A stretch of DNA of 43,720 nt from Reclinomonas americana ATCC 50394 (taxonomy: Eukaryota), in assembly GCA_048213135.1 (NCBI GenBank), contig PS015078.1:1-43720 (forward strand). The letters are read 5' to 3'. Positions 1 through 43,720 of the stretch are shown here, in pieces. Position numbers and translations under genes: made by a program. The notes beneath the pieces were generated by a model that had not been told where the DNA came from, made no database searches, and saw only the letters and a list, made by a program, of their open reading frames with translations. Position 1 is the first letter of the stretch. The number at the start of each line of letters is the position of its first letter.

Positions 1-1533
1 GGCGGCCACGACCAACTCGAGGAGCGCTTGTCCCTGCAGTTTGTCGAGCGGCTGCGAGTCCGTGGCACAGAACAAGAGCTGTGTCGCGTCCGTCACGCGG
101 CTCACGCGACTCTCGCGACATTGCCGTTGCAGATCGCGCCTCCAACTGCATCGCACTTGTCAACAACAATCGCGCCCCACTCGTGTGCACTAACGCATGT
201 GTTCAACCCACTTGGACGACAGTTTCCACGGTGCCTTGCGCATCCTCCTCCAGTGCGCCGTCTCCTCCTCGAGCGTGTCAAACGCCGGCCGACTGCCTCC
301 TCGGCGATCGCCAGCAGAAGCCAANNNNNNNNNNNNNNNNNNNNNNNNNNNNNNNNNNNNNNNNNNNNNNNNNNNNNNNNNNNNNNNNNNNNNNNNNNNN
401 NNNNNNNNNNNNNNNNNNNNNNNNNNNNNNNNNNNNNNNNNNNNNNNNNNNNNNNNNNNNNNNNNNNNNNNNNNNNNNNNNNNNNNNNNNNNNNNNNNNN
501 NNNNNNNNNNNNNNNNNNNNNNNNNNNNNNNNNNNNNNNNNNNNNNNNNNNNNNNNNNNNNNNNNNNNNNNNNNNNNNNNNNNNNNNNNNNNNNNNNNNN
601 NNNNNNNNNNNNNNNNNNNNNNNNNNNNNNNNNNNNNNNNNNNNNNNNNNNNNNNNNNNNNNNNNNNNNNNNNNNNNNNNNNNNNNNNNNNNNNNNNNNN
701 NNNNNNNNNNNNNNNNNNNNNNNNNNNNNCTGCCGCCGCCGCGTCGCCAACAGGCGCCACCGCCCCTGACGAGGTACCGTCGTCCACCACCGCCATCAGC
801 GGCGACGACACACACAGCAGCAGCCACTCCAGCGAGAACTCACGCTGCGCATCGGAGTGTAAACAACAGAGGACCTCCTTCTGTTTCTTCCTTCCCCCAT
901 GACGCACCTCCGCCGCCTCTCCCACACTCCGTATCAACTGCGTCAACGAGTCACGCACCAACGCCCCAAACGGCTCAATGAACGCCCTGTACTTCTTGCT
1001 GCCACTCAGCTGCCGCCGGATCATGTGGGCAAACTGCGCACAGAAGCTGTGCGCAAACCCACAGTCGGTCGGTCCCAGAGACAGTTGTCCACGCGTGGGA
1101 ACGAGAGACGCAACGACTGACACACACACTGACACAGCTCGGTGGCTACGCTCTCCGACAACTCGTTCCTGGCAAACAGACAGCACAGCACCGGCAGCTC
1201 ACCATGCTGCGCAAAGTACAGCGTCACTCCCGACGCGCGAAACATGCGCAACGCCAACGACGATCCCGACGACGAAGAAGAAGAAGAAGTCGCCTGCGCT
1301 TTGCTCTGTAACACCGACAGCATTCCACAGATCTTGATCAGCGCCACCTCGCGGTCTGCGCAATTGAAGTGAGACCAAAGTGCGAAAAAAACNNNNNNNN
1401 NNNNNNNNNNNNACTGAGAAGAAAGATGAGGACCTTCTTCATCAATCACACTCGGCATGCCAAAGCCATTGACAAACTGCTGATGATAGATCGGTTGCGA
1501 GATGTCACAGTTGAGCAGAAGAAAGCCATTCAT
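1..1533 (-). CDS. Spliced gene, N-terminal longin-like domain protein (3' end runs out of the window; interrupted by gaps)
   Basis: ATG at 1533. Exons 1533-1434 and 1355-1115 and the following ones join in frame through GT-AG introns: MNGFLLLNCDISQPIYHQQF...DREVALIKICGMLSVL...LRMFRASGVTLYFAQHGELPVLCCLFARNELSESVATELCQCVCQSFCAQFAHMI. The beta-beta-alpha-beta-beta-beta-alpha-alpha hydrophobic pattern resembles longin domains (by eye only). Confidence 0.5.
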
Positions 1534-1624
1534 CGCGCGCACTCTGGCCACAAAGCAAACAAAACACGAAATGGACAGTTGCTGCTCGCTCTGTCCATGA
1601 TTGACCCGGCATACAACAAAATCG

Positions 1625-2597
1625 ATGGCGGAGGTGGACGCAATGCTGTGGGCCAGCCCGAGTCGGGCGACGCTCAACGTTTCGTCTCCAACGCACTATG
1701 CACACACACGCACTTTCGTTGTTTCGCGTTTAAGTGTCGTGCTTGCGTGTGCGCCATTTCGCTCTCTCTCTCGCACACACGCACAAACGCTCTCTGTCTT
1801 TTGCGTGTTGCGCATATCGCTCTCTTGTGTGTAGTGTGCATACGCGTTCACGTGACTCACACGCACGCGCGGAACATTATGTGCCTGTCTGTCACTTTTG
1901 TGTGTGTGTGTGTGTTTGTAACCGTCGAAAGCCAACGACGCACTCGCCCGTGTTCGTCGTTACAATCACACTCACTCACAAGACACTTTCTTTCTCACAC
2001 ACACACTGTCTCTTGCTCTCTCGCACGCATTCCGTGCATGTGTGTGTGTGTGATGAAGCTCACTTTGGTTTATTGAGTGTTTTGGCGCGCGCGCTCACAC
2101 TGGCTGTTTATCATTGCCTTTGCCAATGTGGATGCACAGAAGATGATTGACTGGTTGATGCGTGGCACTGTGCAAACTGTGGACATTCTGCCTTCTGCGG
2201 CGGCCTTGGCGGTTCCAGGCGTGATTGGCCTGGTGATTTTTGTGACCTTGGCGCGCCTGATTGCCGGCAAGCTGTTTGGGGGCAAGAACGGGAGCATGGT
2301 GGCGCTCATTCTGCGGAGTGAGGTCTTCTTTGCGGCGCACATGGCGCTCTTTGTGGCCGGTGTCCTCGGCTACTCGGTGTTTACGCAGACGCAGCAGGTG
2401 CGTGTCAGTTGGGAATTGATGGGGTTTGCATGTGTGAGATGAGCAAGCGTGGAGGCTGGGAGGGTGGAGGCAGTGTCTTTGTGCGTGGGATGCAGTGTGT
2501 GTGTGTGTATGAGTGGGGGCGAGAGAGGGAGAAAGGGAGAGAGAGAGTGAGGGAGAAAGAGGGTCCCCGGAGACAATGTTTTGCAAGTGAGTAAGAA

Positions 2598-2637
<40 letters not shown>

Positions 2638-4382
2638 GAGAGAGGGTGGAGGCAATGCGTGTGAGTTAGTGATTACTCGTGCGTTCGAGTGCATGTTTGC
2701 GTCTTTGAGTGTCGGCAACTGGTAGTGTCTGTGAGCGTGGAATGCGTGTGTTTGCAAGTGAAAGGAAGTGCCTGTGTGTGACTGTGTGAGAGAAGGTGCA
2801 GGCAATGTGCATGCGTATGTTTGAAGAGTGTATGGGCAGTGTGTCTTTTGTGGATACATCGCGAGTTTCTTGCGTGCATCTTTGCATGTCAACAAACTGG
2901 CACAGAGAGAGAGAGAGAGATATGCATGTGCCAGGTTGTGTGGGATGAGCGTGTGTCTGTGAGTGTAGATGCGTGCGTGAGTTAGTGTGTGTGTGCTCGC
3001 CGTTGAGTGTGCAAGTATGAAAGAGTCTCTTTAATGTCTTTCTCTCCCTCTCTTCCCTCTCTTCTTCTCTCCATCCTTCTCCCCTCCCCCTCTCTCCCTC
3101 TCTCCCTCTCTCCCTCTCCTCCCTCTCTCCCTCTCTCTCCCTCTCTCCCTCTCCTCCCTCTCTCCCTCTCTCTCCCTCTCCCCCTCTCTCCCCTCTGTCC
3201 CCCTCTCTCCCTCTCTCTCACATCTTTCTCACCACCCCATTTTTTGTGCCTCCGCAGACTGTCGTCGACATCCCGTACATTGGCGAGGTCTCGCGAGAGT
3301 ACTTTGTCAAGGCGTACTTCCTGGCAGAGCTGTCGGTGGCGTGCATTGCGCTGCTGCAAAAGATTGTGTATCTGTCGCCCTTTGCAGTTGCGTTTTGCTG
3401 CTCGTTTTCCTCTCCTTCCGCTTTATCGCTTAGTGTGCATTCGCAGGCCATTTGGGCGCTGTTCAAGGTCGCCTTCATCCTGCTGGTGCTGGAGAAGGGC
3501 TACCTGAACGCATGCATGAGTGCTCTGCTGGTGGCCAATCTCGCTGGCATGGTGGAGCATGCTGCTGTCGCTCTGTGCTCCCTCAATGTCCGCGGCTTCC
3601 AGCTGTACGCCGCCGCGCTCTACTGCATCGTGCACGCCGTGTGCAAGATCGCCTTCCCGATTCGTCTGATTGTGTCGTGGTGCGTTGGGGTCCACCTGTT
3701 TTTGTGTTTCTCGTACATCTTTTGGTTTCCAAACAAAGCACTTCACTTGCCAAATGCCTTGCTCCCCTGCGTCTGTGTCCCTCGTTTCCCTCTCCTCCCC
3801 TCCTCCCCATCCTTCCCCTCCTTCCCCTCATTCCCCCTCCCTTCTTCCCCCGACCTTGCATCCCTCCTCCCCCTCCTCCCCCTCCTTTCCCTCCTTTCCC
3901 TCCTGCTCCTCATTCCCCCTCCCTCCCTTCTTTCCCCGACCTTGCATCCCTCCTCTCTACTCCCTCCTCGTACTGACGAGGGTTGGTTCAACAGGTTCAC
4001 CACGGTCAAGTCGGACCGATCGGCTCTCATTCTGTGCGTCGTGTTTTGTTTTCCCCCTTGTCGGTGATCGCGCTGCTGACTCCTGATTTATTGTGACAGG
4101 GCGGGCGAGGTTCTCGTCGTGCTGGCCGTTGTGCGCGCCCTCTTTGCGCAAGCTGCGCTGCTCGTCACGGTGCGCAACGCCCACGCCTACCGCAACACCA
4201 ATGTGGACGTGGCGACCACCCGCATCAAGACCGTGTCGGTGAGGCTGAGAGGGAGAGAGAGGTTGTTGTTTTTCTCTGTCTCTTTTATTTACAAATTGCG
4301 CTCGCAGCACTGGTCGTGGCTCCTTGGCGAGGTCGGCGAGATTGCCGGTTTCATTGAGGGTCAGGCGCAGGCCACTGTCCTG
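1625..4382 (+). CDS. Multi-pass membrane protein, 5' exons (weak TLC/TRAM-like pattern); continues in 4546-5166(-) and 5736-6401(+)
   Basis: In-frame exons MAEVDAMLW..|KMIDWLMRG..|TVVDIPYIGEVSREYFVKAYFLAEL..|..|HWSWLLGE..QATVL, with several hydrophobic helices and consistent GT-AG phases. Confidence 0.65.
3035..3240 (+). repeat. Intronic polypyrimidine (CT-rich) tract; similar tracts at 3780-3965 and 18378-18625, (GA)n at 32402-32464
   Basis: Directly visible. The tracts lie inside modelled introns. Confidence 0.9.
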
Positions 4383-5735: not shown

Positions 5736-6401
5736 CAGCAAAAGGCTGCTGGCAAGAGTGCGTCAGCCTGCATTCTCACCTTGTACCGGCGTAGGTGGTG
5801 CTCACGTGATTGCTTTTCCCCATCCTTGCAGAGAAGGGCATTCCGGGAGGCAAGGCCGAGCAAGAGGCAGTGAAGAAGGGACTGCAGAATGTGGCCGCCG
5901 AGGCAGAGGTGCGTGTGAGTGTCAACAATTGGCATTCTGCGGCTGCATGTGACTGACTTGTGTGCGTGTGCAGCCAAAGAAGGACGGCGAGATGACGAAT
6001 ACCGACGAAATCGACAATGACGAGCTGGTCGACATGGGTGGCGTCTTTATTGTGTACGTCGACCTGGGCGCTGGCCTGCTGGACATCAACTTTGCACAAC
6101 AGCTCATGCACACTTCGTTGCGTCGAGGTTTCCTTTCCCCTTGCCGGTAGACACACACTTGTCGACTCACACATGCAATGCCAACAGAGCGGCCTTCCAC
6201 TCGTACGTGGAAGTACCTCAAGGGGCCAATTTCAACTACCTGCGTCTGCTTCTGTACTACAGCCCGTACCACTTCTGCCGCACTCGACCAACAGCCGCCG
6301 AGTACTGGCCGACAAAAGCACCTGTGGGCAAGGTCACGATGGCTTGCTTGACGGCCGCTGGTTCGCTGGCAGGCTACCTCGCGGCAACAGCAACACAGTA
6401 A
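5736..6401 (+). CDS. 3' exons of the 1625-6401 gene (unknown C-terminal globular region)
   Basis: Four in-frame exons QQKAAGK|KKGIP..|PKKDG..DMGGVFIVYVDLG..MHTS|AAFHSYVEVP..TATQ*. Donor at 6117 is GTTGCGT. Confidence 0.65.
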
Positions 6402-6523
6402 GTTCATGGTTGACAATCGCGGAGAGAAAAGAGAACGAGAGAGTTTGTAGTAGTCGGCTGCGTGTCTTCATACTGGTGGGCTGTAACAATAATGAAGAGA
6501 AAAAGCAACGTTTGGTCAACATT

Positions 6524-8652
6524 TCATTTCACGCTGGCGTCCCGTTCGCTTCCCTGTCTGCTGCCTGCGCCTGCCCTTGCGCTTGTCGACAGCGATTTGA
6601 CCACGACACCCTCCAGGTGAATGTCCAGCGGGTCGTACACCTTCTCATCGGCAATGCTGCCGGTGGCTGCGCTGTCGGCCGACATGAGATCGGGTTCCGG
6701 AGCGCCGGCAGCAGCGGCTGCTTTCCCGCGTTCACTGGATGGTGGAGCGTCGTTGTCGGCGGCGCTGCGCAGCGATGGCGGTACACTGCCCGACGCTGCG
6801 AGAGATTGGGGGAAGTGAGACGACGGCGATCGACATGCGACTTCTCTTCACCCACCTCGTGACAGATGAGCGTGCGGTGGCAGAACCGACATTTCTGTGG
6901 GCGGTGAGGGTGAGAAGCCTGACGACGCCCCCCTTCGAAAAAAATATGAGATCGCCTCACTCACCCAGCAGCTTCTCAATGTAGGGCAACACTGGTCGCG
7001 ACTCTTCCTCCTCCTTTTCTGAGCGATCCTCGGCGACGTGCCAGCTGCCGCGTTCGCCCAAGTGACGCGGAGTGGGAATGTGTGTCGCGCATACAGGGTG
7101 TGTCACGTAGATCTGCACGAACGGCAAGGCGTTCTCAGCGATCCGATACACGACGTGGCGAAGGGTAGCATCGTTACTCACTGGCAAGTGATAGTGCCCC
7201 ACGAATCCATCGGCCAGACACAGCTTGATAAACACGCGATACGTCAACTCAATCAGCAAACCACGCGTGGTTGGCGGCGTGTCGGCGGGAACAGGCAGCG
7301 TGATTTTCTGCCAAAGAAAACAACGACCCACTCAGGTCCACGCCACTTCCCAGATGAAAGAGAGTGTGAATGCTCTCACCTGGAGAACAGAAAAATCGCC
7401 AAACTGCACCGAGGCGAGATCGGTGACACTGCGGTACGGGTACCCGTACGCCTGTGTCGACAATATTCTCTGCAAGCAGGCTTCCCCCGATACCACCTTC
7501 GGCAGGTTCTTGGGCGTGCGCACTTCGCCCTCGGGAACCGCCACCGGCAACATGGGCATCAGCTGACTGAGTACCCTGTTGCGCTCCTCGGCGAGCATCT
7601 CGAGAGTCTTCTTACGCGACCGCGTAGACACGGCCACACGCACACTCGAGTCCGCACCGACGCTATCGCCCCCGTCACCAGCTGTAGCACCATGAGTGAC
7701 ACCGTGGAGAACAATGTCTTCTTCGCTCTCATCGTCACTTTCGTCACGTGGCTCCAACGGAGAAATCGCAGTTCCCCTTGGTGTGCTGTTGTTTTTGTGC
7801 GGCGTGAGTGCAACGAAGAGGGGAAAGGAGAAAATAGGGAAAAGAGTGGCGAACGCAACATTACTTCGGCAGGCAAGAACACGGCGACATGCACGTGGCC
7901 GCCGGCAAACTGCAAATGCTGCACCGATAACCTGCACAACCCTCGTCAACGACTCTGCTTGGTAAACAACACGCTGCGTGCACAACCACCGACCTGTACG
8001 GGATCCCATGCATGTCCACTGACACTTGGCGGTACGCGTCGCTCACACTGAGTGGACACCGCTCGAGAATCGCCAGGTCGGCGGAGGAGCGCAGCCATCG
8101 TGGTTTATCCAAGTTGTCCAATCGCGGCACCGACAGTCCGTTCTGGTGCGGTTGCTTGGTGCCGGGCAGCAGCACTGCCGACGAGTGGCAGCGCACTTCG
8201 AGGCGGTACGAGATGTGACCGCGGCCACCAAGCAGCGACAGCGACGACAGGGTCTTCGGCAGCGTCACATCAAACGTCGCCTCGTAGTAGCCGGGCAGGG
8301 CAACCAAGAAAATGTGCTCGTCGTCCACGAGTCGCAAGCCAACACGCGAGCTGGTCGTGCTACTGAGCGCCTCACTGGCCTCTGCACCCCCATCGCGATC
8401 GTCACCCGCCTCACGCGTCTTGTGCGGTCGCACCACCCACGGCGCACTGGAGCCCGAATCTGTGCGCGCACGCATGAGATCAACGAGCAGACGACACGCA
8501 GCAGCAGCGCAGCCGCACTCAACTCTCCTGCACACGAATGCGCGAGAGGGGCACATCGAAGAAATACTCGCTGTCGGTGCTGTCGGTGTGGCCCTCGGGG
8601 AACGACGATCGCAACCACGGATCGATATCCTCGGGCAACTGCCGAACCGCCT
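6524..8652 (-). CDS. Alpha-arrestin (arrestin N/C domain) protein, main part
   Basis: Arrestin_N-like LPGYYEATFDVTLPKTLSSLSLLGGRGHISYRLEVRC and Arrestin_C-like KITLPVPADTPPTTRGLLIELTYRVFIKL. Multi-exon; the exact 3' exons are less certain. Confidence 0.7.
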
Positions 8653-13289: not shown

Positions 13290-13670
13290 CTGCACGCACA
13301 AAATGACACGTGTCNNNNNNNNNNNNNNNNNNNNNNNNNNNNNNNNNNNNNNNNNNNNNNNNNNNNNNNNNNNNNNNNNNNNNNNNNNNNNNNNNNNNNN
13401 NNNNNNNNNNNNNNNNNNNNNNNNNNNNNNNNNNNNNNNNNNNNNNNNNNNNNNNNNNNNNNNNNNNNNNNNNNNNNNNNNNNNNNNNNNNNNNNNNNNN
13501 NNNNNNNNNNNNNNNNNNNNNNNNNNNNNNNNNNNNNNNNNNNNNNNNNNNNNNNNNNNNNNNNNNNNNNNNNNNNNNNNNNNNNNNNNNNNNNNNNNNN
13601 NNNNNNNNNNNNNNNNNNNNNNNNNNNNNNNNNNNNNNNNNNNNNNNNNNNNNNNNNNNNNNNNNNNNNN

Positions 13671-18629: not shown

Positions 18630-19220
18630 TTATCGCGAAGGCGTTCTCGGCAACGTGGTGCGCGACATTCGTCTGTCACTGGTGGATCCCAAGGCGCGCC
18701 TGGCGGCCAAGCTCTCTGACAGGCTGTTGAAGGAGATCAACGATTACGAGAGGGCCATTATGCACATTCGTCAAAACGTTGCGCTTGCGTCCATCCATAT
18801 CACTCTCGCCTTCCCTCTCTCTCAACACCCGCGCGGACGGGCGCACACAGGCGAGAACGCATGCCGAGACACTGCCGGCGGACCGCACGGTGATCCTGCT
18901 GTGGCACTGCCTGGACGACAATTGCGAGGCGCGTCTGGCGTTCTTGGAGAGACTTCGCACGGCCGTGATGAGCGGCAACAAATCCATCAAGGAGTTGCGC
19001 ACCATTCGGGAGAGGGATAGGTGCTGGGGGAGTTCTGACGAGGTCTCGTCTGCGCAGCCTGGGCGCCTCGTTCGAGATCGACGAGTGGAAGCGCTTCTAC
19101 TCACGACGAGACCAAGTGCAACAGCAGCTGCCGGAGCTCGCCGATGCCTCCACCGTTGCCGGCGCGGTAACAGCCAGTGCGCTTCCGTACGGTGGCGACA
19201 GGGGCACCGCGCGACGTTGA
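18630..19220 (+). CDS. Unknown-family gene A, 3' exons
   Basis: YREGVLGNVVRDIR..YERAIMHIRQN|ARTHAETLP..LWHCLDDNCEARLAF..IKD|LGASFEIDEWKRFYSRR..* aligns with the C-half of gene B and shares intron positions. Confidence 0.65.
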
Positions 19221-19282
19221 TCGAGAACGCAGAATGTACAGTGTTTTTTTGGCGCGAATCACTGTATTTCCGAGCAACGAAG

Positions 19283-21095
19283 ATGATGGCGGCGAGTGCA
19301 TCGGCACACGATCGTGCACCCTCTCTCTCCTCGGCACAGTGCCGTCTGCCGCACGAGCTACCAGTGAGCAATCGCCTTACTTTCAGCGGCTGGACTCATG
19401 CGGGTCAGTGTGTCTGCGTGTTTCAAAGTTCCCGCGCTCTGCCTCCTCATGTGATCACCTCCCCGCAGTGCGCACACCCACGCAACTGGAGGACCTTCGC
19501 GTGGTGGAACTGTTGATGCCAGTGGGCACTGAGAGTGGCCCCAGTCATGCGCGTCGCCTGGTGCCCGCCGGCAACCTGCACTATGTGCGATCACTGTCGC
19601 TGGTGGCGCGAGGACAAGTCGTCATTGATGTCGACGATCATCGTGCAGACGGTGGTGAAGATGATGACAAGGTGCAGGCGTTTCGTATGAAGGCCTCACT
19701 GCTGTGCATCCCCTCGGACCTCTTGCGCACAGTTGCGTCGACGATCAAGACTGTGGAGGTTGTTTTCATGGCGCCTTCTCACAATTGTCTTGCAGCCACT
19801 GGATCAACATGCGCTGTGGACCGACTACCTTGTTTCGTGCGAGCTCATGTGTGAGACGATTGTGCTGCAGCGCTCACTTCCCTCGCACGCAGAATCGACA
19901 TGGGATCCGTGTCATTCCCACACGATCGCCGTCGCCGTCGCCTGTCTCGTCGGTCTCATCGAGTGGTACGTACTGTGGCGGTGCCGTCTGTGTTGTTCTC
20001 GTGAGGTTCATATGATCTTGTGGTGGGGTTCGTTTGCAGATTCGTCGGCATCTGCGTCGACGGAGGTGCCGGTCGGCGACTCGATGGACCTGTGCTTGGC
20101 GATGGCGCAGTCGTTGGACCCGGCGCTTGAGGGCTTTGCTGCACTCGACGGAGAGGCGCAGCTGCAAGGTTTGTTGTTGACTTGAGGGGGGATGCAGTGG
20201 ACGCATGCAGGCTGACGCACGTTGTCGTCGCACAGCGCTGCGCAAGATCGGTGTTGGATTCGAACCTCTCGACTTGGAGGCCTTTGGTGGCCACGCAGAC
20301 CAGCAGGAGCTGGCATTGCTGAGTGTGGAGTCTCTCGCGGCACTGGTATGGCTCTTCTGCCTGCTCTCCGAGTCAGAGGGTCGGACATTCACCACAATAT
20401 GTGTATGCAGCGCGATCGGCGTCGACACTACTTGGACATGGTCACCGCGAGGGCGCAGGTTGGTTTTGTGCTGCACCAGCTCGGAAGCATGTACATGCGA
20501 CTGAGAGAGGCTGACGCGCGGTGAGTGGAGGGACACGCCACACACACGCACTGTCTTTTGTGGCAAGTCCCTCAATGCACTGGCAGGGCGCTGAGCGGGG
20601 TGCTGGGCGATTTCACCAAGGAGCTGCGACGAAGTACCTCCAGCGCCGACGGCGCCCGCATGAGCTTCTCCAGTCACCGCATCCTGCAAGAGGTATCAAC
20701 GTACGAGGAGGCCATCGCCTCTGTAATTACGCTGGTGTGTTCGTGGTGCGTCTCGCAGTCGTTATGTTTCATCGAGCGCTGAATCAACTTCGTGCGCAGG
20801 CCTCGGTGCACGTCGACGCGCTACCAGTGATCAACGAGACCGTGATCATGCTGCGCGAGTGCCTCTTTGAGGCGTGCGAAAGCCGCCTCGCGTTTGTCTT
20901 TCGCGTCCGCGAGTGCGCACATGGACGACGCGAGCCGAAAGAGTTGCGAACACACACCTCACCGCGTTGCGCTCTTTCTGCCTGCTCAGCTGACGAACAC
21001 ACAGCTTCGGCTCCGGTATCGAGCACGACGAGTGGGCGCGGTTCATGGAGCGGCGAGCGTACCTGCTGCAAGAGCTGCCCGACGGTCTCACGTGA
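19283..21095 (+). CDS. Unknown-family gene B (tandem paralog of gene A)
   Basis: In-frame spliced model ..VRTPTQLEDLRVVEL..AGNLHYVRSL..CIPSDLLRT|PLDQHALWTDYL..GVLGDF..LRECLFEACESRLAF..KD|FGSGIEHDEWARFMERR..*. Confidence 0.65.
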
Positions 21096-26261: not shown

Positions 26262-26400
26262 CGAGAAGACAGAGAAATATAACAAATGCCTCTTCTGCGA
26301 TTCACTACTACTGCTCGGGGAAAAAACGAACAACAACTCATTAGCCAGGCTCCACTGCCGCCGGCTGTGCATCACCACTCTCATCCTCCGTACGCTTGTT

Positions 26401-28338
<1,938 letters not shown>

Positions 28339-28567: not shown

Positions 28568-31765
<3,198 letters not shown>

Positions 31766-31859: not shown

Positions 31860-32398
31860 ATGCTGAAGGCCAAGGCATTGCCGCCCGTTCTGGAACAAGC
31901 CGTCGACCACGGCGTGCGAAGTGCTCTGTTGAGTGAGCGACACTAAGACACAGAGATTCGCACACACATACACACACGTGTGAGAGATGCCACGCGTGCA
32001 ACACATGCGCGCGCTCTCTCATACACACACACGCACACAGCGAGAGAGAGAAATGACGCAAGAGAGTGTGCGCGTGTGTGTGTGCAGATGTGAACATGTG
32101 CACTCTCTCACACACGCTCTTCTTCTTCTTCTTCCGCAGTCTGTTCAATGGTGAGGGCAACCTGCTTGCGGGCAAGAGCACGGAGGGCATTGATGAGCAG
32201 TTGTTGTCGGCGATTGTGTCGAATGTGTGGAAGAGCATTGAGTCGGTGGGTGCGGGAGGTCAGCGACCTGAGGCTCTCGACTTTATGCTGGCCGACTTTG
32301 AGGTGAGAGGGAGAGAGAGGAGGAGGAGGAGAGAGAGGGAGGAGAGAAAGAAGGGAAGGGGAGAGTGTGATTGAGAGACGGAGAATAGGAATGCTGGG

Positions 32399-32465
<67 letters not shown>

Positions 32466-33354
32466 GACGACGACGAGAGAGNNNNNNNNNNNNNNNNNNN
32501 NNNNNNNNNNNNNNNNNNNNNNNNNNNNNNNNNNNNNNNNNNNNNNNNNNNNNNNNNNNNNNNNNNNNNNNNNNNNNNNNNNNNNNNNNNNNNNNNNNNN
32601 NNNNNNNNNNNNNNNNNNNNNNNNNNNNNNNNNNNNNNNNNNNNNNNNNNNNNNNNNNNNNNNNNNNNNNNNNNNNNNNNNNNNNNNNNNNNNNNNNNNN
32701 NNNNNNNNNNNNNNNNNNNNCTATGAGAGTTTGAGCAATGACAGAGCGCATCATGCAGCCGCTGCGCCTGGAGTGTGCTATCAAGAGTGTCACATTCACC
32801 TCCATTAAGTGTGACTTAGGAGAGTGTGACATTCAGTCACTGTGGCAGAGACTTGCAGATTGCACTTGAGAGCGTGGCATTCAGTCCTACTGTAGCGCTT
32901 GCGTTCGAGAGCATGACACTCTGTCACTGACTCGCAGTCCGCACCCAAAAGCACATCATTCAGCCACTGTGGCCGAGGCGCACAGCTTGTTCCCGAGAGC
33001 GTCACATGCAGCCACTGGTGACAACTCACAGCTTGCACTGAGAGCGTCACATTCACCCGCAATGAGAGCAACGCACATCTTGCACCCGATAGCATGACAT
33101 GCAGTCTCTATTCACACTTGTTGCACTCAAGAGCGACCACCATCTTCGTCGCGTCACACACGCTTTGCATCACTCTGACTCACCCTTCCGTCTTTTGTGT
33201 GCTTCAGGGCGGTCGCCTCTGCGTAGTGCCGATCTCCAAGGTGCTGCTGTGCTTGGTGGCTACCTCCAACACGCCGTTCGGTCTGCTGCGATCCAAGGCT
33301 GTGGTGCTGCAGCAAGCCATCTCGGTGCCCTTCAGCCAGATCATCGAGCAATAA
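31860..33354 (+). CDS. LAMTOR2: Ragulator subunit LAMTOR2 (roadblock fold)
   Basis: Exons 31860-31927, 32140-32302 and 33208-33354: MLKAKALPPVLEQAVDHGVRSALLFNGEGNLLA..SAIVSNVW..FMLADFEGGRL..LLCLVA..FGLLRSKA..PFSQI, colinear with LAMTOR2. Confidence 0.93.
32743..33140. repeat. Degenerate tandem array, about 10 units of 37-48 bp, in LAMTOR2 intron 2
   Basis: Core approximately TTGCACYCGAGAGCRTSACATKCAGYCACTG. AGAGY/AWAGC anchors at 32743, 32784, 32821, 32869, 32908, 32948, 32996, 33041, 33089 and 33130. Confidence 0.75.
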
Positions 33355-33479: not shown

Positions 33480-35446
33480 TTATCTGGGCGCCTCGAGCGG
33501 TCGAATCAGTGACTGGAAGCGTGACCAGCTCGGTGTGCGGTGCGGCTTGAGGAGATGGAACACGCGAGAGGTGAGCTGGCGCAATCGCTCGCCACGAGTC
33601 AGCAGCGTGTACCAGCGGTGTTGCAGGCGGCGGCGTTGCTCTGCAGCAGGTCGGCGATCAGGGGGTTTTTTAATCCTTGCACACAATCGTGTCGGCCAGT
33701 GTACGTACCTCGGTGTGCCAGCATGTAGGCCGCTTCGTCGTGCTTTGCGGCGTCCACACGCCACGACTCGAGCGTGGCATCGGCGAGTTGTTCGAGGTAG
33801 AGATCGGCGAATGGCAGGTACAACTGCGCCACACTCGCGGCCACCACCACGTCCACGTCCCACAACAAGAGTCGACGCAATGTGCGACTCACTTGCTGCG
33901 GAGCACCACAGATTCGTGTGAGTTGAATACTTGGAAGGCGATCGACAGCAACGAAAGAATGGCCAAACCAGTGTCTGCAGCACGATATCGAGCACAGCTC
34001 GATAGTACTCTGTGTCCTCCAGTGGCGCATCGTCAACCGGCAGCACTGCGATGGGTTGCGCGTGAGAAGCGTGCCACGATCCCAAAGTATGACAGTGTCT
34101 GGCGAACCGAGTGCAGAGTCGAGGGGCGACGGTTGCACGACATGTGACTCGGAGGCAAAGAGACCGCATGTCGACGCCGCAGCCTCGGCCATTTGTTGCT
34201 CCTGTGCCAACAGCGGGCACACGACTGCAGAAGAAAGAGAGTGAGCGAGGCCAGACGATGCTCCCAAAACGAGCACGACTCCCGCAACAGAATTCATCAC
34301 GATCTGCCGCCTCCATGGTCGACGCCGGCACCAGCAGCACAAACAACACATTTTCCTAAAGAGACAGCCACGCGTGAGCGCACGTGAGGTGAAGATGTGG
34401 GCGCTCAGGATGTACAATAGCACACCAGCAGCGGTCCGGATTCTGTGTTGGCGGCCTCGTCGAGCAACTGACGCACGACACGGGCGACCACCTGCCAGTG
34501 TGACGCTGCCTCGCACAGTCGCCGCATCATCTAGCGAATGATCGGTGAGGCAGCAGCGGTAAACACACAGAAGACTACAGATGCACACGTACCGCAAACC
34601 GCACGGCGAATTCGGGCTGCCGAAAGAGAACCACACTCGACTCTGCGCACACGAACAAGTCGGCGACAATGAACGACGACGAGACAACTCGCACGACCAC
34701 GCACCAGCATACGTGCGCAGCTCGGCGAACCTATTCCCCGCCTTCTCGCCACCATCCACAGGCGCAGCCGCCACTGCAGCCGGCACCGGCTCCGCAGCCA
34801 CATACTCATCCATGATCACCACTGCCTTGGTCCACGACAACAACTCCCGCATCAGCTGCACCGACAGTGAGCAGTGCTGCAACGCGGTGAAGCACTCCTC
34901 GCACCGCCAAGCACCTCATCGACAGCCGGCATTCTTGCCACTGCCTCTTCGGAACGCGTCTCCTTCTCGCCACACTGCTGCTGCACCTGCACGAGATACT
35001 CGACAGCTGCCGGAGGGAGCACCTCGCGTACAATCGCCGGAACCTGTCCACCACTGACCACACTCAGCATGCGCTCCGCCAGCACCACACTGCATCATCG
35101 CATGAGCTGAGGGGGGAAGGTGATCGCCGACATGCAAAAAGAGACTGACTGACCGTGTCTCTTGCAGAAATCGCTCCACAGTCGCCTCTGTCACTCGCCA
35201 CGCATCACTCAGCTCGCGTACGATTCTCTGCTGCTCCACTGCATCGCACACAACGAATGCCTGCATTCACTCAGCATTCACAGAGGGAGTGTGAGAGAGA
35301 CAAGTGACAAGGAGTACCTGTTCCACAGAGTGCGCCCAGTGCATTGCGCGTGCGGCATTCTCCTCATCGCCACTGCACAGCTGGCGACACGCAGGTAGCA
35401 GGTGCGTCCACACATAGTGCGCCTGGTCGCGCACCTCCTCACCCAT
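33480..35446 (-). CDS. Putative Fanconi anemia group F (FANCF)-like protein
   Basis: N-terminal DEENAARAMHWAHSVE, then LLWDVDVVVAASVAQLYLPFADLYLEQL and RLQHRWYTLL..LRQ..PSWSRF. These resemble the three conserved FANCF blocks in the right order (by-eye comparison). Confidence 0.5.
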
Positions 35447-35506
35447 ACGCGACAAGAAAGCCTGTCCTCTGTCCTCTTCATTCTCTTGATCATCGCCTCT
35501 GAGCAC
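35447..35506. promoter_or_regulatory. Putative minimal bidirectional promoter (60 bp between divergent ATGs)
   Basis: ATG at 35446(-) and ATG at 35507(+). Inferred only from the gene models. Confidence 0.35.
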
Positions 35507-35783
35507 ATGTTTGATCGCTCCAACCGCCTTCTCACATACGCCGTGGCACTTGTCGTCGGTGTCTCCTCTGGTGTGTACATCTGGAACGAGCCACTGAAGA
35601 ACCAGTTGCGCTCAACAAACAACAAACACACATGCGCATCTGTTGTCTCTCACACGTGCGTTGTGTGCTTCGTGCAGCTATGCTCAGAGACGCGTAGAGA
35701 TTGCTCAGCAGCAGCAGCAGAAGCAGCAGCAGCAAGAGCAGTCGTCGTCGTCTGGTGGCACGTCGACATCGACCTCGCAGTAA
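35507..35783 (+). CDS. 67-aa single-TM microprotein, PIGBOS1-like
   Basis: Exons 35507-35604 and 35678-35783: MFDRSNRLLTYAVALVVGVSSGVYIWNEPLKNHYAQRRVEIAQQQQQKQQQQEQSSSSGGTSTSTSQ*. Confidence 0.6.
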
Positions 35784-35863
35784 ACATTTCCGTCCGTTCA
35801 TCATTCCGTCGGTTTCGGCAGTTTCTTTGGCGTGTGCGCGTGTGTGCCTTGGCCAGTGGGCCC

Positions 35864-36392
35864 ATGAGCCTCGAGTTCTTCGCCAAGTACGGCAAGCGCA
35901 AGAGCTGGGAGCCGTATCAGGCACCCAAGCGCAAGCTGATCCCGTTTGAGACGTTTTTCGAGGTGGTACACGAGGAGCGGCTGGAGACGGTTCAGAAGGA
36001 TGTGTTGCGTCCGATTCTCCACGCACTCGAAAGAAAGCACTGCTGTCTCTCGTTGTTCTCTCACACCGACACACAGTCCGATCTTGTTCTCGTTCACGGG
36101 CGAGGATCCAGTGTACGAACACTATCAGCGCGTGAAGCAAAAGCTGCGTGAGGATTCGCGAGTGGATCGCGCGGTGGTGGAGGACAAGCTGCGCGAGCTG
36201 GAGGAGCAGAAGCAGGCGGTGTTGACGCAGACGGAGATCACCATTGCGCATTTCGTCAGCACCGAGATTGTGGAGAAGCAGCAACGGCCGTATGTGATGG
36301 CCAAGAATCGCCAGCACAAGGCCGCTGTGCAGGTGCATCACGACAGCGCAAAGCCCATGCGCAAGAATGCACAGCCGCATGAACGACGATGA
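35864..36392 (+). CDS. Small hypothetical coiled-coil protein (2 exons)
   Basis: MSLEFFAKYGKRKSWEPY..QKDV|PILFSFTGEDPVYEHYQRVKQKL..* joined through the GTTGCGT donor at 36004. Confidence 0.6.
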
Positions 36393-36556: not shown

Positions 36557-39500
36557 TCACCACAGGTACGCCAGAGCGTTGGATGTCGGCGTTGTTGACA
36601 GCAGCGACGCGTCACACACCGATGCCTGCATGAAGGGGATAAGCCAGTCGACACTGCTGCAGCAAAAGGGAAAAGGCGACTGACCTTGAAAGTGGTACTG
36701 TCACACGTCTGGGTGTTGCAAATGCCCGCATTGAAGGTCGTCGAGCAGAAGCCACGAATGGCGACGCCGGTGTTGTCCGAGCCTTGTGCTCGAGGCCGTT
36801 CCTGCACAACATACACACTTTCAGATCGATGGACGGCACGCTGACAGAAGAGAGCGGCAACGCACCACAATTTTGCCGCCTCTACAAGTCCACAGTTCCA
36901 CCGAGGTGTACTTGGTGCCGGCGTTGCCGGCCATGCAGCAGCAGTTGGCGGCGAATGTTCCCCAGTTCGTAAAGCCAGCAAACTCGTAATCTTGAAGCAC
37001 CGAGCACGTTCCCTGTGATCGAAACAGCGTCAGCCTGACACACGTATGACACACGAGCACTCGCGGCGACAACAACGCAACGACGACATCGCGAATCGGA
37101 TAAAATTTGGGATCCGAGGAGTCGATCACGAGGCCCACCAGTGCCACGCCAAGGATGAGGAAGGCACCAAAGCCTGCGAGTTGCGCGAGTAAGAACCGTG
37201 TGTGCATCAAGAGACGGAGCAGCATCCACGCACCAATAATCAAAAAGTAATTGGAGGTCAGCTTGAGATTGTACTCGTTCAGCTGCCGATCCAGCACCAA
37301 CGACAGGGGCACGGTGACGACTTTGTTCTTGTCCGACCGGTTCACCACTTGTACTTTTGTGGATCGGTAGGCTTGCACGTCCTGCATACCACCACCACCG
37401 CCGTCAGTGAGATGCGTGAATGCGAAGAAGAAGAACCCACAGAGGGCCTCCACGCAACTCGATGGTGCAGCGGAACGACGGGGTTCACCGCCGACTGAGG
37501 TCTCGACTGCGACGGGGCAGCCGGTGTTGTCATCCAGTTATTTCCTGGCACACCGTCGGCCGGTGCAATCGCCACGGCGGCGGTATTGGTGTTCGCCGCA
37601 ATCTCCGCGTCGCGGCGTTTCTGTGCGAAGAGCGTTGGTCACGGTGACGACTGACAAGTGTGCCTCCGTGAGCGACAAACCATATAGCTGGCACGCGCAA
37701 AGCGCTGTCGGCAGTAGTCGAAGAAGAGGCCGATGATGATGCACAGGCCCGGCAGCGCCACGTTGACACCGAGTAGGACGTACAAACCCTCCGGTGGGAA
37801 GCGAACATTCAGGCTGAACAACAGGAACACAATGGCGTTGCTGATGTTGCAGATCGACGTCACCGATGCCAGCGCATCCTACACGCCTGGTCGTCAGTGC
37901 ACACGTACAGTCGAAGGGACATTATAAAGCAAGCAACGCACCAAAAAGCCCGACACGTACGGTCGGCAGAACAGGAGCAAGCAAGTGAAAATGACATGCA
38001 CGCCGAGCATGACGCTGGTGGCCACGGTGGGATACTGCGCGGTGAATCGATGAGTGATCGGGGGCAAGCCGTGCGAGCAAACAGCGAGAGAAATGCGTAC
38101 CGGGAACAAGAAAATGGCTGTCACGACAAGCGTCTGGAGCACTCGGCGATGAGAACACAATGTGGCCGGCATGCACACAACACAATCATAGGAGACGCAC
38201 GAATTTCTGCACAATCTGGATGACCTTCCAGTAGCGCCACTTGTAGGCGTACGACGAGTACAGCATCTGCGTGACAGAAATTGGTGAGCTAAACAGAGCG
38301 GCACGAGACAAAAAACTATCGTCCAACTCAAGCAGCACCTTGGCGGAATTCTCCGTCACGGCGACTCGCACGCGCCACTCGACACGCTGGCGCTCTCGGG
38401 GCGGCAACGACGCAAACTCCTCATCAGTGAGGTTGACGTCTTCACCGCGCACCGGCAACACACGGAGGAACTTGACGCTGTTGCGCGTCAAGTACCAGTA
38501 CAGCACTGCATGCAGGCGAAGCCAGCCAGTCAGCAAAAAATGGATGGCTCGTCATCAAGACGAAGAGCAGATAATGTGCGAGCGCAACTTGGAATGCCGA
38601 CGCAGTACAGGAGGAACGCCAGGCCAGCACCCGGTGCGTAGTACGGCCAGATTTCGCCCGTGCAAGACAGCGTCGGGTCCGCTTGCTGCGCCGCCACAAA
38701 GAAGCGCACAGTTGGTGAGCCACCACCACCACAAGATCTGTGCACACACAGCACGCAACAAGACGCAAGTCGGTTTCACCCGGACACAAGTCCGAGATCC
38801 CGCAGTTGTTGAGCCACGTGCACGACTCGCACATGGCGGTACGGCGAGCGAGAGACGACAGCGCTGTGCACTCGAAAATCAGACGCATTTCGCTTTCTCG
38901 CGACGCTGCCACACGACAGACACACACACCTTCACTCAGGCGCACCGCGCGGCTGACGAAGCGAGAGCCGGAGCCGCACGTCTGCTGAGTGCATTTGGCC
39001 ACGGCGAGAATCGTGTTGATGATGGGGACGTAGATGAGCGAGAGGCCAAACACGAGGCCCTTCAGCACCACCTTCTTGATAAAGAACTGCATCATGACGA
39101 GGAAGACGCGGCCACGACGGAACAGGTTGAGCGTCCACTGAAGCAGCAGCAGACCACCAGTGCCGGTCATCACCCAGCTGCACGCCAACAGTAAGCATCA
39201 AGGACAGTGACTACGGGAACGATGAGGGAGAGACTGACCTAATAACGAATCCAGCAGCACCCAAGGCGTCCTGCACGGTGCTGAGTCCGACCTTGTCGCC
39301 CGGAATGACACCGGCGGCGAGTAGGCCGAGCGCAATGAGGAAAATGGCAAAGATAAAGTCGCGCAACAAAATGCAGCAGTCTGTGCGGCCGAACGGTCAG
39401 AGGCGATGGGCGACAACAAAGGAGGCGAACACGGAAGAAAAACGCAACGCTTCTTCTTGGCGCGAGCCATGCTACGGCGCAGAGCCATCGCAGACAGGTT

Positions 39501-41300
39501 GTCGGGATCGACCTCCGAATCGCCACCGTCCGAGTCGTCGTCTGAGTAGTCCTTGACAGGAATGCTGCACGCATTTCCAAGTGTTAGGTTCGCGCCAACA
39601 ACGAATCCATCGACACTCGTGTGTGCGACGCAACGCCGATGAATCGTTGCGCACGGGTGCCATGAGACCGCCACCAGACGACTTGTGGAAAGCATTGGCC
39701 GCTGACACACAATGAAAAGTGAGTGAACAGTTTGTGGGAAAAAAACATGACCGCCGTGCTCATGCTCACCTTCAGCGCGGTTGCTGACAACCTTGACGTG
39801 GCGACCGCCAACGCCACTCGACGAGACATCTGCAAGGTAAGATACATGCGGTGAGCAACAACCCTTTGTGGCATTCATAATGGAATCACACGGCATCGCA
39901 CCCTTGACAGAGCGTGCGACATTGATGGCGCGCGACTGTTCCTCCGCGCCACTCGGGCGTCGCGTGGACTGCATAAGATGGACTCGGTGAGCAGGCGACG
40001 AAAAAGAGGCACGCATGTGTGTGTGTGTGGGAAACGCACGGATGCCATCTCCACTGTGCCTGGGATGGATGGTCGCACGGCCCAGTCGGGTTTGTTGCCG
40101 TCGAGAATCGAGTCGGCGAGCGACGGGCGCTGCTGACGGCTGCGTGACTCACTCGGAGAGTTCTCTGGTGACGTGTGCTCCGCTGCGCTGACGGACGACA
40201 GCTGCGATGATTCGCGGCTGGATTCGTGACTCGAGGGGCGACTCGACACGCGCCGGCTGACCGGTCGCGACGGAGCCTGCATGAATGTGTTGAGCTCCTC
40301 CGCCGTCGCCTGGCCCGGACGTGGAATCGGCAGCACATCACCCGTCTCGGGGCTAACGTCAAGACAAGGAGTGAGCGTGGCAGAGCAGCAACAGCGACGG
40401 AGAGCATTCACAGCGCACTTGATGTAGTAGCTCATGATCCAGTCGTAGTCGTCGTAGCCAAAGTTACCAATGCCGAAACCACTGGCGCGACGCGGCGCCT
40501 CCACAGGCGGTTGTCGCTGCACCGACGGCATGTGCTGCGGAAGCTCATGCTCCTTGCTACCAGCCGCCACCTCCTGCGGCGGCGCATACCCATCATCTTC
40601 ATCGTCGCGCGCATACGACTTGCCACACCGATTCGCCAAGCAGTACACCATCCACACCAGCAGACACATGCCCACCAGACTGCCACCAAAGATGAGCAGG
40701 AAGTCGACGGGCACGACTGTCGCCAAGTCGGATCGTGGCAGGAACTTGGCAATGGCGCCCACAATCAGCGCAGTGGCACCCGACAGCAGTGTCAGGTACC
40801 ACACCATGATCACCATTGACTTGAACACGACAAGCAGCAGTGCGGCAATCAGCAGTGGCAAGCCGACAAGAAGAAGCAAGAACATGCTGAGAGAAATCGC
40901 GAGTCAGTCATTGAGTGATGGAGATGGAGAGAGGCAGGCAAAATAATGCACCCGCGAAAGTCGAGCACTGGAACCCATGGAAAGGCATAGCGCAGGCCCA
41001 CGTTGAGGTAGTTGAGCTGCAAGTGTGCACATATCAGACACTTCTTCGTTCTCTCTCTCTCTCGTTCTTTCTCTCTCTCTTTCTCTCATTGTTCACGCAC
41101 CCACTTGGCGTACTTGGACCAGCCGTCGGGCACCAGCACGTCGTGGTTTTGATTGAGTGCAAAGAACTGCGCGAGAAGGTCGTGCGCGTGTGTGAATCTT
41201 ACACTTTATGTCTCTCACAAGCGCGCGCGCGCGTGCACACACACAGAGAGCGTACCTGCAAGTAGGTGACGAGAATTTCAATCACCTCCGCGAGGCCCAT
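36557..41300 (-). CDS. Large multi-pass membrane protein with Cys-rich loops (protist GPCR/TRP-C-like TM family)
   Basis: MGLAEVIEILVTYLQ|FFAL.. with many TM helices; RLQADPTLSCTGEIWPYY..LYCVGIP, LYSSYAYKWRYWKVIQIVQK, CRPY motifs; Cys-rich C-terminus ending LAYLW*. Confidence 0.7.
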
Positions 41301-41417
41301 TTTCCTTGCGCGCGCACTCACTCACTCTCTGCAAGTTGTTATAAATGATGTTCGATTGCAGAGAGTCGGTTCACCTTTGCCGTGACATGACAATTGCATC
41401 CTTATGTATACTATCAC

Positions 41418-43720
41418 TCACAGTGGCTGTGCCAACAAGTGCTCCTGTAGCTCACTGTCCAAGGTGACCAGATCGTCGCCGGGTCTGCGAGGCCGTTTCA
41501 GCTGTACATGCACGGTGGGCGGTGAGTAGAACGCACGATATTTCCGATATCTTGCAAAAAAACGTCACCAGTAGTCCAGTGTGCACAGGCGGTGGGGCAG
41601 GGCGTTTTCGGGATACAGTGATAAGAGGGGCAGAGGCATGGGCAGGTGGGGGCAGTGGTACAGGGCAAGGAGTTAGGCGAGGGGAAGTGACAGGCGAGGC
41701 AAAGGCAGAGGGACCAGTCCACGTCCGCAGCGGCTGCTGCGCGGCACACGCATACAGTCAGACAAAACACAGCGTGTGGTAAGCAAGGCAGCGTGCAGTA
41801 CCGCGCGAGGTGGAGTCGACGGCGGCAGCAGCAGGGTGGACGAGGAAGGATGACCGCACTCGTCTTCGTCGTTGGAGAGAAGCGGCACAGACAGGTGGGC
41901 AAGCGATGGGGTCGTTCTGCGCGCGGGAGGGGAATCGCATGTCGGTGAGTTTCCATTCCCACTCTCCATCTTCACGCAAGATAGCTTCGCAACTCGGGAC
42001 ACCGAAGCATCATGGTCGTAGCGTCATCCTCGGCACTGCACGAACAATGCAATGAGACAAAAAAGGCACCGAAAATAGATTTCTCGCGCCACTCGCAACA
42101 CAAACGTCTCGAAACGCAACAACTCTTCTGCAGCCGAGGGCGCGACCAATGTGATAACAGAGCAGGCGGGACGCAGCAGCGGCGACGGCACAGCATTCGC
42201 CAATGACGGCGGCGGAACAAGTTCAAATGTGGACTGGACAGCTATTGGAGCGGATGACGACGACGACGACGACGACGGCGGCCTGTGCTCCCAGTGATGA
42301 GACACGTAAGACAATACGCACACGGGGGTAGTGGCAAACGCAACGGCATGTCATCGAGCCACCACTCCAACAGTGAATCTCGCTTGCTGCACATTCACGA
42401 AAGGCAACCAGTCAGACCCAGAAAACGCCCCCATGTGGCCTCTCTCGCGCAACTTCAACATGGAGAAGAAATCCTCATGCTGTTGCTGCTGCTGCTGATG
42501 CAACGAAGGAGGTGGTGGTGGAGGTGGAGGTGGAGGAGGCGGAGGCAAAGCTAATGCAACAGCGGGTGGTGGTGGTGGCGGCGGTGGAAGCAGAGACAGC
42601 GGCAGTGGCAGCCACTGCATCACTGCAGGCGCCTCTGCTGCTGCTGGCGCATACACAGCCGCCAGAGCGGGGATGGAGACGGGCGTGGAGACAGCCGGTG
42701 ACACACTGACGACCCCCGCAGATGCTGACTGCTGCTGTTGCGTGCGCTGGTGCGGAGTCGGTGTCGCCAGCAACTTCTTGCGACGATGTTGAAACCACGC
42801 AGTGATACGTGCCGCGGGCATGCCAGTTTGCGTCACCAACAGCTCACGCGTACTCTTCGCCAAGTACGGCGACTCGGCAAAGGCCGCCTCCAAAATCGCA
42901 AGCTGCTCGTGAAGGGGTGAGCACACAGGCGGCCTCTGTCTCTGTCTCCTTCCACACACACNNNNNNNNNNNNNNNNNNNNNNNNNNNNNNNNNNNNNNN
43001 NNNNNNNNNNNNNNNNNNNNNNNNNNNNNNNNNNNNNNNNNNNNNNNNNNNNNNNNNNNNNNNNNNNNNNNNNNNNNNNNNNNNNNNNNNNNNNNNNNNN
43101 NNNNNNNNNNNNNNNNNNNNNNNNNNNNNNNNNNNNNNNNNNNNNNNNNNNNNNNNNNNNNNNNNNNNNNNNNNNNNNNNNNNNNNNNNNNNNNNNNNNN
43201 NNNNNNNNNNNNNNNNNNNNNNNNNNNNNGCACGCACCTGCTCAGCAGAGGCCAGCTGCTTGCGCGCAGAAGCAGACGAGGACGAGGACGACATGTCTGC
43301 GTGTTCCGTCTCCTTCTTGGCTGCCAACCGCCGCCACTCATCGACAAAGGGCGCAAAGCGCGGGCACACCTCGAGGTGCTTGCGCAGCAACTGCGCAGAC
43401 TCCTTCCCGTGAAAGAGCGCCACTCGCTCGTGCTTGCGCGCTCCATCACACTTGTGCACGGTGCCATCGTGCGGGTCCACAGGCGCGCACGGGCACAGCA
43501 AGGCAGTGTCGACTGCGCTGGTGCTGTGCTCGGAGGTGCAGGCGAGCTGGGCGCGCTTGAGGCGGCTGTGGCGGCCGAGCATGACTGCGCGGGAGCCGGG
43601 CGGGTGCGGCGTGTCTAGGTGGTCCAGGTGCTCGCATAGCTCCTGCAGTGTGCGGAAGGAGCGCGGGCACAGCGACGACACGCAGCGGAGAAACGTGGTC
43701 GGCCGACCTCCGCTCATCGC
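41418..43720 (-). CDS. Zn-finger plus homeodomain transcription factor (5' end outside the window)
   Basis: C2H2-like CVSSLCPRSFRTLQELCEHLDH. Homeodomain EQLAILEAAFAESPY..RELLVTQTGM..RITAWFQHRRKK (about 42935-42770). P/Q-rich tail joined through four phase-2 GTTGCG introns to the stop at 41418. Confidence 0.75.

Follow-up and report, generated by a model that had tools for sequence, protein, structure and literature searches.

Sequence evidence for a second abundant 5′ splice-site class, GTTGCGT, in a 44-kb stretch of Reclinomonas americana DNA, and its probable reading by U1

Few features of spliceosomal introns are as constant as a purine at +3 and a G at +5. The window analysed here, a stretch of 43,720 nt from Reclinomonas americana ATCC 50394 (assembly GCA_048213135.1, contig PS015078.1, positions 1 to 43,720; 54% G+C, 15 runs of N), consists of eukaryotic, intron-rich DNA with short introns, and it raises the question of how introns that seem to begin with GTTGCGT are cut and recognized. 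A sequence-only reading had listed 34 donors of the form GTTG[C/A/T]G, in which one extra T moves the G of the ordinary donor from +5 to +6 (referred to below as shifted donors), and five more fitting GTT-Y-Y-GT. The hexamer was found at all 34 positions and on the strand given for each, and the five additional sites were present as well (1679, 19832 and 25718 on the plus strand; 10096 and 18307 on the minus strand). On the evidence set out below, GTTGCGT, and less often GTTGAGT and GTTGCG[C/A], was confirmed as a second abundant, discrete donor class of putative GT..AG introns. The set of supported introns behind this conclusion comes from five genes in the one 44-kb window.

Three of these introns lie in the gene for 4-hydroxyphenylpyruvate dioxygenase (HPPD), which was identified by Pfam glyoxalase/HPPD matches, 120 homologues, a tblastn exon chain and reading frames, and whose closest homologue in a large protein collection is 78% identical. 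The gene and its donors are as follows (a slash marks the cut):

26400..27930, minus strand: HPPD gene, six introns, three starting GTTGCGT
27477..27483, minus strand: shifted donor ACT/GTTGCGT, 79-nt intron, acceptor GATGCAG/ at 27405
27294..27300, minus strand: shifted donor GCT/GTTGCGT, 73-nt intron, acceptor GGTGCAG/ at 27228
26465..26471, minus strand: shifted donor ATC/GTTGCGT, 66-nt intron, acceptor GCGTGCAG/ at 26406
27788..27794, minus strand: ordinary donor GAG/GTGCGAT, for comparison, placed by reading frames
27132 and 26910, minus strand: the other ordinary donors of the gene, placed by reading frames

The HPPD junctions were scanned by sliding donor and acceptor by ±18 nt, with no dinucleotide rule, and each resulting peptide was scored on 40 homologues. 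This dinucleotide-blind scan ranked 27483/GTTGCG…AG/27405 and 27300/GTTGCG…AG/27228 highest. When scores were computed against the 120 homologues, the GT..AG reading was best or tied at all three junctions (196.2 at 27483, 165.3 at 27300 and 251.4 at 26471). A GC donor 3 nt downstream scored lower at each of them (185.6, 158.5 and 247.4, in the same order), and a cut after the G scored lower at two of the three (186.3, 165.3 and 247.4); at 27300, cutting one base later produces an identical mRNA, with the next exon beginning with G. Reading through the intron gave 113.5, 103.0 and 247.4, respectively. The third intron, at 26471, is the most telling of the three. The last coding exon (26398-26471 region, minus strand) comprises two coding bases, TG, followed by the TAA stop, and splicing AAT C/GTTGCGT to TG-TAA yields a protein ending in …RGN-L-stop; the C-terminus is exactly RGNL in 75 HPPD homologues, and the other printed tail types likewise start with L. 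A gene finder would almost certainly miss this tiny exon and add eight spurious residues (RCVFLMYV) instead. Eighty metagenome loci carrying HPPD (L001-L080) were also gathered and 11 of them examined. At 51-73% identity (76% for the best match) their matches were uninterrupted wherever enough of the gene was covered; the intron pattern of the window was seen in none of these 11 loci, none of which is a close relative.

Three further shifted donors were placed by comparing two small tandem paralogues, P1 and P2, using tblastx, reading frames and DNA alignment:

18630..19230, plus strand: paralogue P1, small gene with two introns, both starting GTTGCGC
20587..21095, plus strand: paralogue P2, small gene, defined by tblastx, frames and DNA alignment
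18778..18784, plus strand: shifted donor AAC/GTTGCGC of P1, phase 0, 73-nt intron
18994..19000, plus strand: shifted donor GGA/GTTGCGC of P1, phase 2, 64-nt intron
20943..20949, plus strand: shifted donor AGA/GTTGCGA of P2, phase 2, 62-nt intron

Two exon blocks were matched by tblastx between P1 and P2, at 54% and 47% identity, and the introns occupy identical positions and phases in both genes. The first P1 intron (18778) has as its counterpart in P2 an ordinary donor, CTG/GTGTGTT, at 20735 on the plus strand, and the residue counts across this junction are equal in both paralogues. The second introns (18994 in P1 and 20943 in P2) are homologous and begin with GTTGCG in both. At the DNA level exons were conserved and the intron interior was not, and the longest identical run crosses the boundary GAGTTGCG. 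Both proteins contain the common motif …I[DE][EH]DEW.RF…, and no Pfam family was found for the exon open reading frame (ORF) at 19171-19851, the one scanned in the P1/P2 region.

A donor of the GTTGAGT form was found in LAMTOR2 (p14), the third exon of which lies past an N run (32482-32720):

31860..32302, plus strand: exons 1 and 2 of LAMTOR2
31928..31934, plus strand: shifted donor TCT/GTTGAGT, 212-nt intron, acceptor TTCCGCAG/ at 32139

Exon 2 (32141-32302) aligns with residues 24-75 of p14 (solved structure, chain 1vet_B, E 0.005). Exon 1 provides 22 codons from the ATG at 31860 and the split codon CT/T provides residue 23; since exon 2 starts at residue 24, the spliced product is exactly colinear with p14. 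CT/GTTGAGT at 31928 is the sole in-frame donor for this acceptor.

The remaining three supported shifted donors lie in a WD40 gene, recognized by WD40 Pfam matches on its exon ORFs and by its frames, which is a putative AAMP/SQT1 orthologue. Between 29981 and 31765 six introns were read, and GTTGCGT opens three of these:

28788..31765, plus strand: AAMP/SQT1-like WD40 gene
30115..30121, plus strand: shifted donor GAC/GTTGCGT, 64-nt intron, acceptor GATGCAG/ at 30178
31092..31098, plus strand: shifted donor GCA/GTTGCGT, 62-nt intron, acceptor CATGCAG/ at 31153
31394..31400, plus strand: shifted donor AGT/GTTGCGT, 65-nt intron, acceptor TCCACAG/ at 31458
30322, 30537 and 31267, plus strand: ordinary donors, placed by reading frames

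Cut sites in this gene were set by reading frame, WD40 domain matches and enumeration of frame-compatible GT/GC..AG pairs. The donor at 31092 is the sole GT donor among seven such pairs; at 31394, five pairs were compatible and this donor was the only GT one with a good acceptor (score 5.4 versus -7.0 and -2.0). At 30115 there were 18 compatible pairs, and the GT donors at 30127 and 30130 use the same strong acceptor. Both 30115 and 31092 were also picked by the motif-blind gene model described below. Searches for AAMP/SQT1 orthologues with a word index of the last exon and with HMMER on a 50-aa exon gave generic multi-WD40 proteins only, tblastn of 14 shorter hits revealed no colinear orthologue, and scoring against 40 generic WD40 proteins did not resolve the junctions. 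It had been claimed that homology and frame together fix the cut in HPPD, LAMTOR2 and SQT1; this held for the three HPPD introns and for LAMTOR2, and for the three SQT1 introns it narrows to frame, WD40 matches and enumeration.

Together, these genes gave 17 supported introns, ten with a GTTG donor (nine GTTGCG and one GTTGAG) and seven with ordinary donors (GTGCGA twice, GTGCGT, GTGAGT, GTACGT, and GTGTGT twice). In all ten cases of the GTTG class, removal of the GT..AG intron restores frame and protein colinearity. Judged from the sequence, the GTTG-class intron is shown to start at the G of GTT. The class resembles that of ordinary short-intron donors of the GTGCGT/GTGAGT type in occurring in the same genes, with the same lengths (57-79 nt typical) and acceptors, which are of the YGCAG/ or ACAG/ type in both: GTTG introns measure 79, 73, 66, 64, 62, 65, 212, 73, 64 and 62 nt, and ordinary ones 65, 76, 57, 67, 471, 68 and 65 nt. 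By eye, branch-site-like words such as CTGAC or CTCAC can be seen near the ends of several introns of either class. Unlike the ordinary donors, those of the GTTG class carry one extra T after GT and lack the G at -1.

The GTTG donors have T at +3 and G at +4 in ten of ten, C at +5 in nine and A in one, G at +6 in ten of ten and T at +7 in seven, and all ten fail the usual consensus (purine at +3, G at +5; GTRAGT/GTGCGT). T at +3 goes with G at both +4 and +6 in 10/10 introns and any other base at +3 goes with G at +5 in 7/7, so that the classes behave as discrete types, unlike variation at independent positions. The base at -1 is G in all seven ordinary donors versus none of the ten GTTG donors (Fisher P 5e-5), and it is also never G in the 12 GTTG donors chosen by the motif-blind model. 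The base preceding a GTTG intron (A, C or T) resembles instead position -2 of the ordinary class, where A or T stands in 7/7. When both are aligned on TGCGT they read G-G-TGCGT and G-T-TGCGT, with cleavage before the first GT in each. As a separate candidate, the U12-type minor intron was considered and rejected: its donor motif, of the RTATCCTT type, resembles none of the ten GTTG donors.

The motif is also over-represented in the window as a whole. GTTGCG occurs 65 times on both strands, versus 25.4 expected from base composition; it is followed by T in 29 cases, C in 21, A in 9 and G in 6, and is preceded by G in 6 of the 65. The complete heptamer GTTGCGT stands at 22 of the 34 listed sites, which is 22 of all 29 copies in the window. 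These 29 copies compare with 10.76 +/- 3.13 in 100 dinucleotide-preserving shuffles, none of which reached 29, and the ordinary heptamer GGTGCGT behaves in the same way (28 observed, 10.45 +/- 2.91 in shuffles), the excess over chance being about 18 copies for each. Orientation was tested against gene spans predicted by the motif-blind model, in which no donor motif is used. GTTGCGT lay in sense in 18 cases, in antisense in one and outside genes in ten (binomial P 8e-5), and GGTGCGT in sense in 14, in antisense in one and outside in 13. The corresponding counts for GTTGCG followed by A, C or G were 13, 10 and 13; this lack of strand bias indicates that the T at +7 belongs to the donor signal. 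As a group, the GTTGCGC, GTTGCGA and GTTGCGG forms are not reliable donors, though three are supported in the paralogues.

Other words are also enriched in this DNA. The palindromic hexamer TGCGCA has 88 copies in the window versus about 25 expected, overlaps many of the GTTGCGC sites without strand bias, and could represent a signal of its own, regulatory or compositional. Long microsatellites of the (TG)n, (GA)n and (GTA)n-like types fill introns and spacers (29633-29980 and 32300-32480 on the plus strand, and elsewhere), and words at the top of the heptamer enrichment list include GTAGTAG, present 29 times, and TGTGTGT, present 183 times.

How far the class extends beyond the supported genes was addressed by gene modelling. 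A simple ORF-bridging test could not tell known donors apart from the remaining GT sites, and a self-trained codon model was noisy and was replaced by one trained on verified exons, with an acceptor matrix from 16 verified introns. In the motif-blind version, based on dynamic programming, any GT could serve as donor and the training was free of donor sequences. This model gave 65 introns, with eight of the 16 verified ones among them, and hence is crude. GTTGCG was its commonest donor (10/65, followed by GTGCGT with four and GTGCGA with three), versus 65 of the 5565 GT sites of the window (binomial P 5e-9), and six of the ten GTTGCG donors lie outside the training genes (1252, 3387, 6117, 36004, 38588 and 39448). 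When the model was run again with a donor matrix for both classes, it recovered 14 of the 16 verified introns and gave 40 introns, 14 of them GTTG (35%); this run is circular for donor details and serves for the proportion only. The earlier estimate that the class makes up roughly a third of the introns agrees with this 14/40, and among the best-supported introns the share is 10/17.

Of the 34 listed sites, ten have a cut set by homology, paralogy or frame (27483, 27300, 26471, 31928, 18778, 18994, 20943, 30115, 31092 and 31394), six were chosen by the motif-blind model (3387, 6117, 8523, 36004, 38588 and 39448), and two coincide with a model exon end (11275 and 19732). Three of the five GTTYYGT sites were also chosen by the motif-blind model. 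The six model-chosen sites are probable shifted donors:

3387..3393, plus strand: GCA/GTTGCGT in a TMEM135-like gene, 60-nt intron
6117..6123, plus strand: TTC/GTTGCGT, acceptor uncertain, with a 71-nt option
8517..8523, minus strand: AGA/GTTGAGT, 64-nt intron
36004..36010, plus strand: TGT/GTTGCGT, 73-nt intron
38582..38588, minus strand: CAA/GTTGCGC, 83-nt intron
39442..39448, minus strand: AGC/GTTGCGT, 68-nt intron

Near 3387 there is a weak TMEM135 Pfam match (2077-2439, plus strand, E 0.014), and a homologue search for this TMEM135-like gene found none. Six of the listed GTTGCG sites, putative as donors, fall inside a large multi-exon membrane-protein gene (36612-40816, minus strand). No Pfam family was found on the exon ORFs scanned in it, and one exon compared with a protein atlas gave a weak lead to a TRP-type channel (0.76). 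Many ORFs of the window likewise have no Pfam family; among those that do, a PIGBOS1-like match (35399-36148, plus strand, E 3e-6) and a DUF3456/canopy-like match (12976-13314, minus strand, E 3e-6) were noted. Taken with the weak TMEM135 match and with HPPD and LAMTOR2, which are animal-like, they hint at a gene set of holozoan or early-fungal type. An intron-less WD40 ORF (15826-16992, minus strand) has very regular 126-nt repeats, and 3 kb off there is a second WD40 fragment (13672-13968, minus strand) with up to ~70% protein identity to it; the gene may have undergone duplication, or assembly gaps may have split it.

We consider it reasonably likely that U1 reads both donor classes in one register, pairing with a +1 shift at the GTTG sites, where the cut is set later, and this is the best explanation that we can offer. 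Both classes could be described by one motif, G-[G/T]-T-G-C-G-T. With G in the second place, the first GT would begin there and the first G would stay exonic, giving an ordinary donor with G at -1. With T in the second place, the first GT would begin one base earlier and cleavage would fall 1 nt upstream of the U1 register, placing G at +6, T at +7 and a base other than G at -1. U1 would pair with a +1 shift, and the cut site would be set later, as U6, U5 and Prp8 take the GU. The presence of G at -1 in 7/7 versus 0/10 donors points to the first G of the GTTG intron taking the place of the exon-end G in pairing with C9 of U1. This pattern, which the sequence-only reading did not include, is suggestive evidence in favour of +1-shifted pairing over a bulged U.

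In the bulged-U alternative, U1 would keep the ordinary +1G:C8 and +2U:A7 pairs, one U of +2/+3 would be bulged out, and pairing would resume at GCGU. It offers as many pairs as the shifted register, and PMC4856993 describes a bulge +2/+3 register in human, with 68 predicted and 54 curated sites. An exon-end G would, however, add a C9 pair in such a register, yet none is seen in the ten supported GTTG donors or in the 12 motif-blind ones, and no duplex prediction chose the bulge. Given the absence of this G, the bulged register ranks below the shifted one, and we regard it as quite unlikely. A different possibility is an altered or dedicated small nuclear RNA (snRNA), that is, a U1 with a re-tuned 5′ end or a second U1 matching GUUGCGU, perhaps with a change in U6. 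The seven positions of GTTGCGT are conserved at least as well as those of the ordinary class, pairing with the textbook U1 is predicted to be weak, and expressed variant U1 genes are reported in humans (PMC3561869). Rfam, however, gave no snRNA match across the window, and the common -1/+1 logic of both classes is simpler with a single U1. To our knowledge the U1 5′ end is also nearly invariant across eukaryotes, which counts against an altered one. We judge this alternative unlikely.

The two remaining alternatives would remove the class itself. If the boundaries were misplaced, the introns would be GC-AG introns following an exonic GTT, or would be cut after the G (TT..AG plus one); the GC reading is always in frame, 3 nt away, and at 27300 a cut after the G yields the same mRNA. 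The HPPD scores run the other way, with the GC donor lower at 3/3 junctions and the cut after G at 2/3. The GC reading also breaks the exact p14 colinearity and the equal spacing of the paralogues, and there is no rationale for an exonic GTT in all three phases, so that misplacement is very improbable. Lastly, GTTGCGT might be a compositional or regulatory word present by chance or for reasons other than splicing, as could be said of GTTGCG followed by C, A or G, which shows no strand bias (13 sense, 10 antisense) and overlaps TGCGCA (88 copies). Since none of 100 shuffles reached the count of GTTGCGT, its sense bias is 18:1, and ten sites coincide with exon ends set by homology or frame, this reading is hardly tenable.

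Several points weigh against the two-class, single-register explanation and its reach. All 17 supported introns sit in just five genes, every supported junction is deduced from protein colinearity, paralogy or frame, and the three AAMP/SQT1-like junctions are without orthologue support. Sixteen of the 34 listed sites have no model support (1114, 7859, 12252, 17885, 22649, 23758, 25972, 35605, 37081, 37458, 38759, 39634, 41993, 42120, 42344 and 42453); they are neither shown nor refuted, and most lie in genes with no detectable homologues. The proposed class stood as genuine, abundant and discrete for GTTG[C/A]G(T); its extension to these 16 sites is putative, and forms lacking T at +7 showed no strand bias as a group. 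As for the register, the absent G at -1 is suggestive and falls short of proof. Duplexes predicted with the textbook U1 5′ end, which may differ from that of this organism, were weak for the ten GTTG donors (+0.5 to -4.0 kcal/mol) versus the seven ordinary ones (-4.7 to -11.8 kcal/mol), and the full shifted register was the minimum-energy duplex in one of the ten, 31092, with the pairs +1:C9, +3:A7, +4:U6, +6:C4 and +7:A3. Such weak duplexes imply that plain U1 pairing may not suffice, and that recognition either depends largely on proteins or involves a re-tuned U1 end. A U1 matched to the C of GUGCGU would form five uninterrupted pairs with UGCGU. The weak duplexes are compatible with an adapted U1/U6 step or variant snRNAs, which the sequence-only reading took the class to imply, and of which they would be no proof.

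Shifted U1 registers are known from other systems. In human, U1 registers that are shifted or bulged are established, as is the setting of the cut by U6, and the validated non-canonical registers together make up 1.5% of 201,541 5′ splice sites (Tan et al. 2016, PMC4856993). The donors of the window resemble the human shifted-register sites (Roca & Krainer 2009, summarised in the same text) in having GU at the cut site and U1 pairs displaced by one, with G at +6 and U at +7, and in that the cut would be fixed after U1 leaves, which is here proposed. They differ from that rare class, as described there, in their frequency (10/17 supported and 14/40 modelled introns) and in a tight consensus, GTTGCGT, that excludes G at -1. 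The bulge +2/+3 sites (Roca et al. 2012; Tan et al. 2016, PMC4856993) are alike in having an extra U after GU followed by an ordinary donor; that register would be expected to keep the exon-end G, unlike the class of the window. In Caenorhabditis elegans, PMC6140464 describes how the donor can slip from one GU to its neighbour as U1 gives way to U6/PRP8, a slippage affected by SNRP-27. The shifted sites of the unc-73(e936)/SNRP-27 mutants (Zahler lab, PMC6140464) share G at +6, in 14 of 26 cases; those are, in the account given there, mutant or alternative sites in a few genes, unlike a constitutive signal serving a large share of introns. A literature search found no description of a GTTGCGT-type donor class, with genome-paper supplements, any donor tables in them, and most subscription papers lying outside its reach. 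What would be new is that a known shifted U1 register is made remarkable by abundance and a tight consensus.

We also consider, as a tentative and somewhat doubtful extension, that this lineage may have rebuilt its 5′ splice-site selection, with two donor grammars used on equal terms, one of them cut 1 nt upstream of the U1 register. If so, the machinery would have to have co-evolved: the U1 5′ end would be re-tuned, or a second one present, and the active site of U6/Prp8 would accept a spacing between scissile bond and U6 helix that is longer by one nucleotide. The organism would then offer a natural system in which to study the choice of cleavage site after the departure of U1. More directly, a shifted donor in a third or more of the introns would show that the relation between the U1-binding register and the cleavage register is evolutionarily flexible, and natural substrates on which to examine how U1 hands over to U6 would number in the hundreds to thousands. 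In this organism and its relatives, a large share of the genes would be mis-annotated by standard gene finders and splice-site models.

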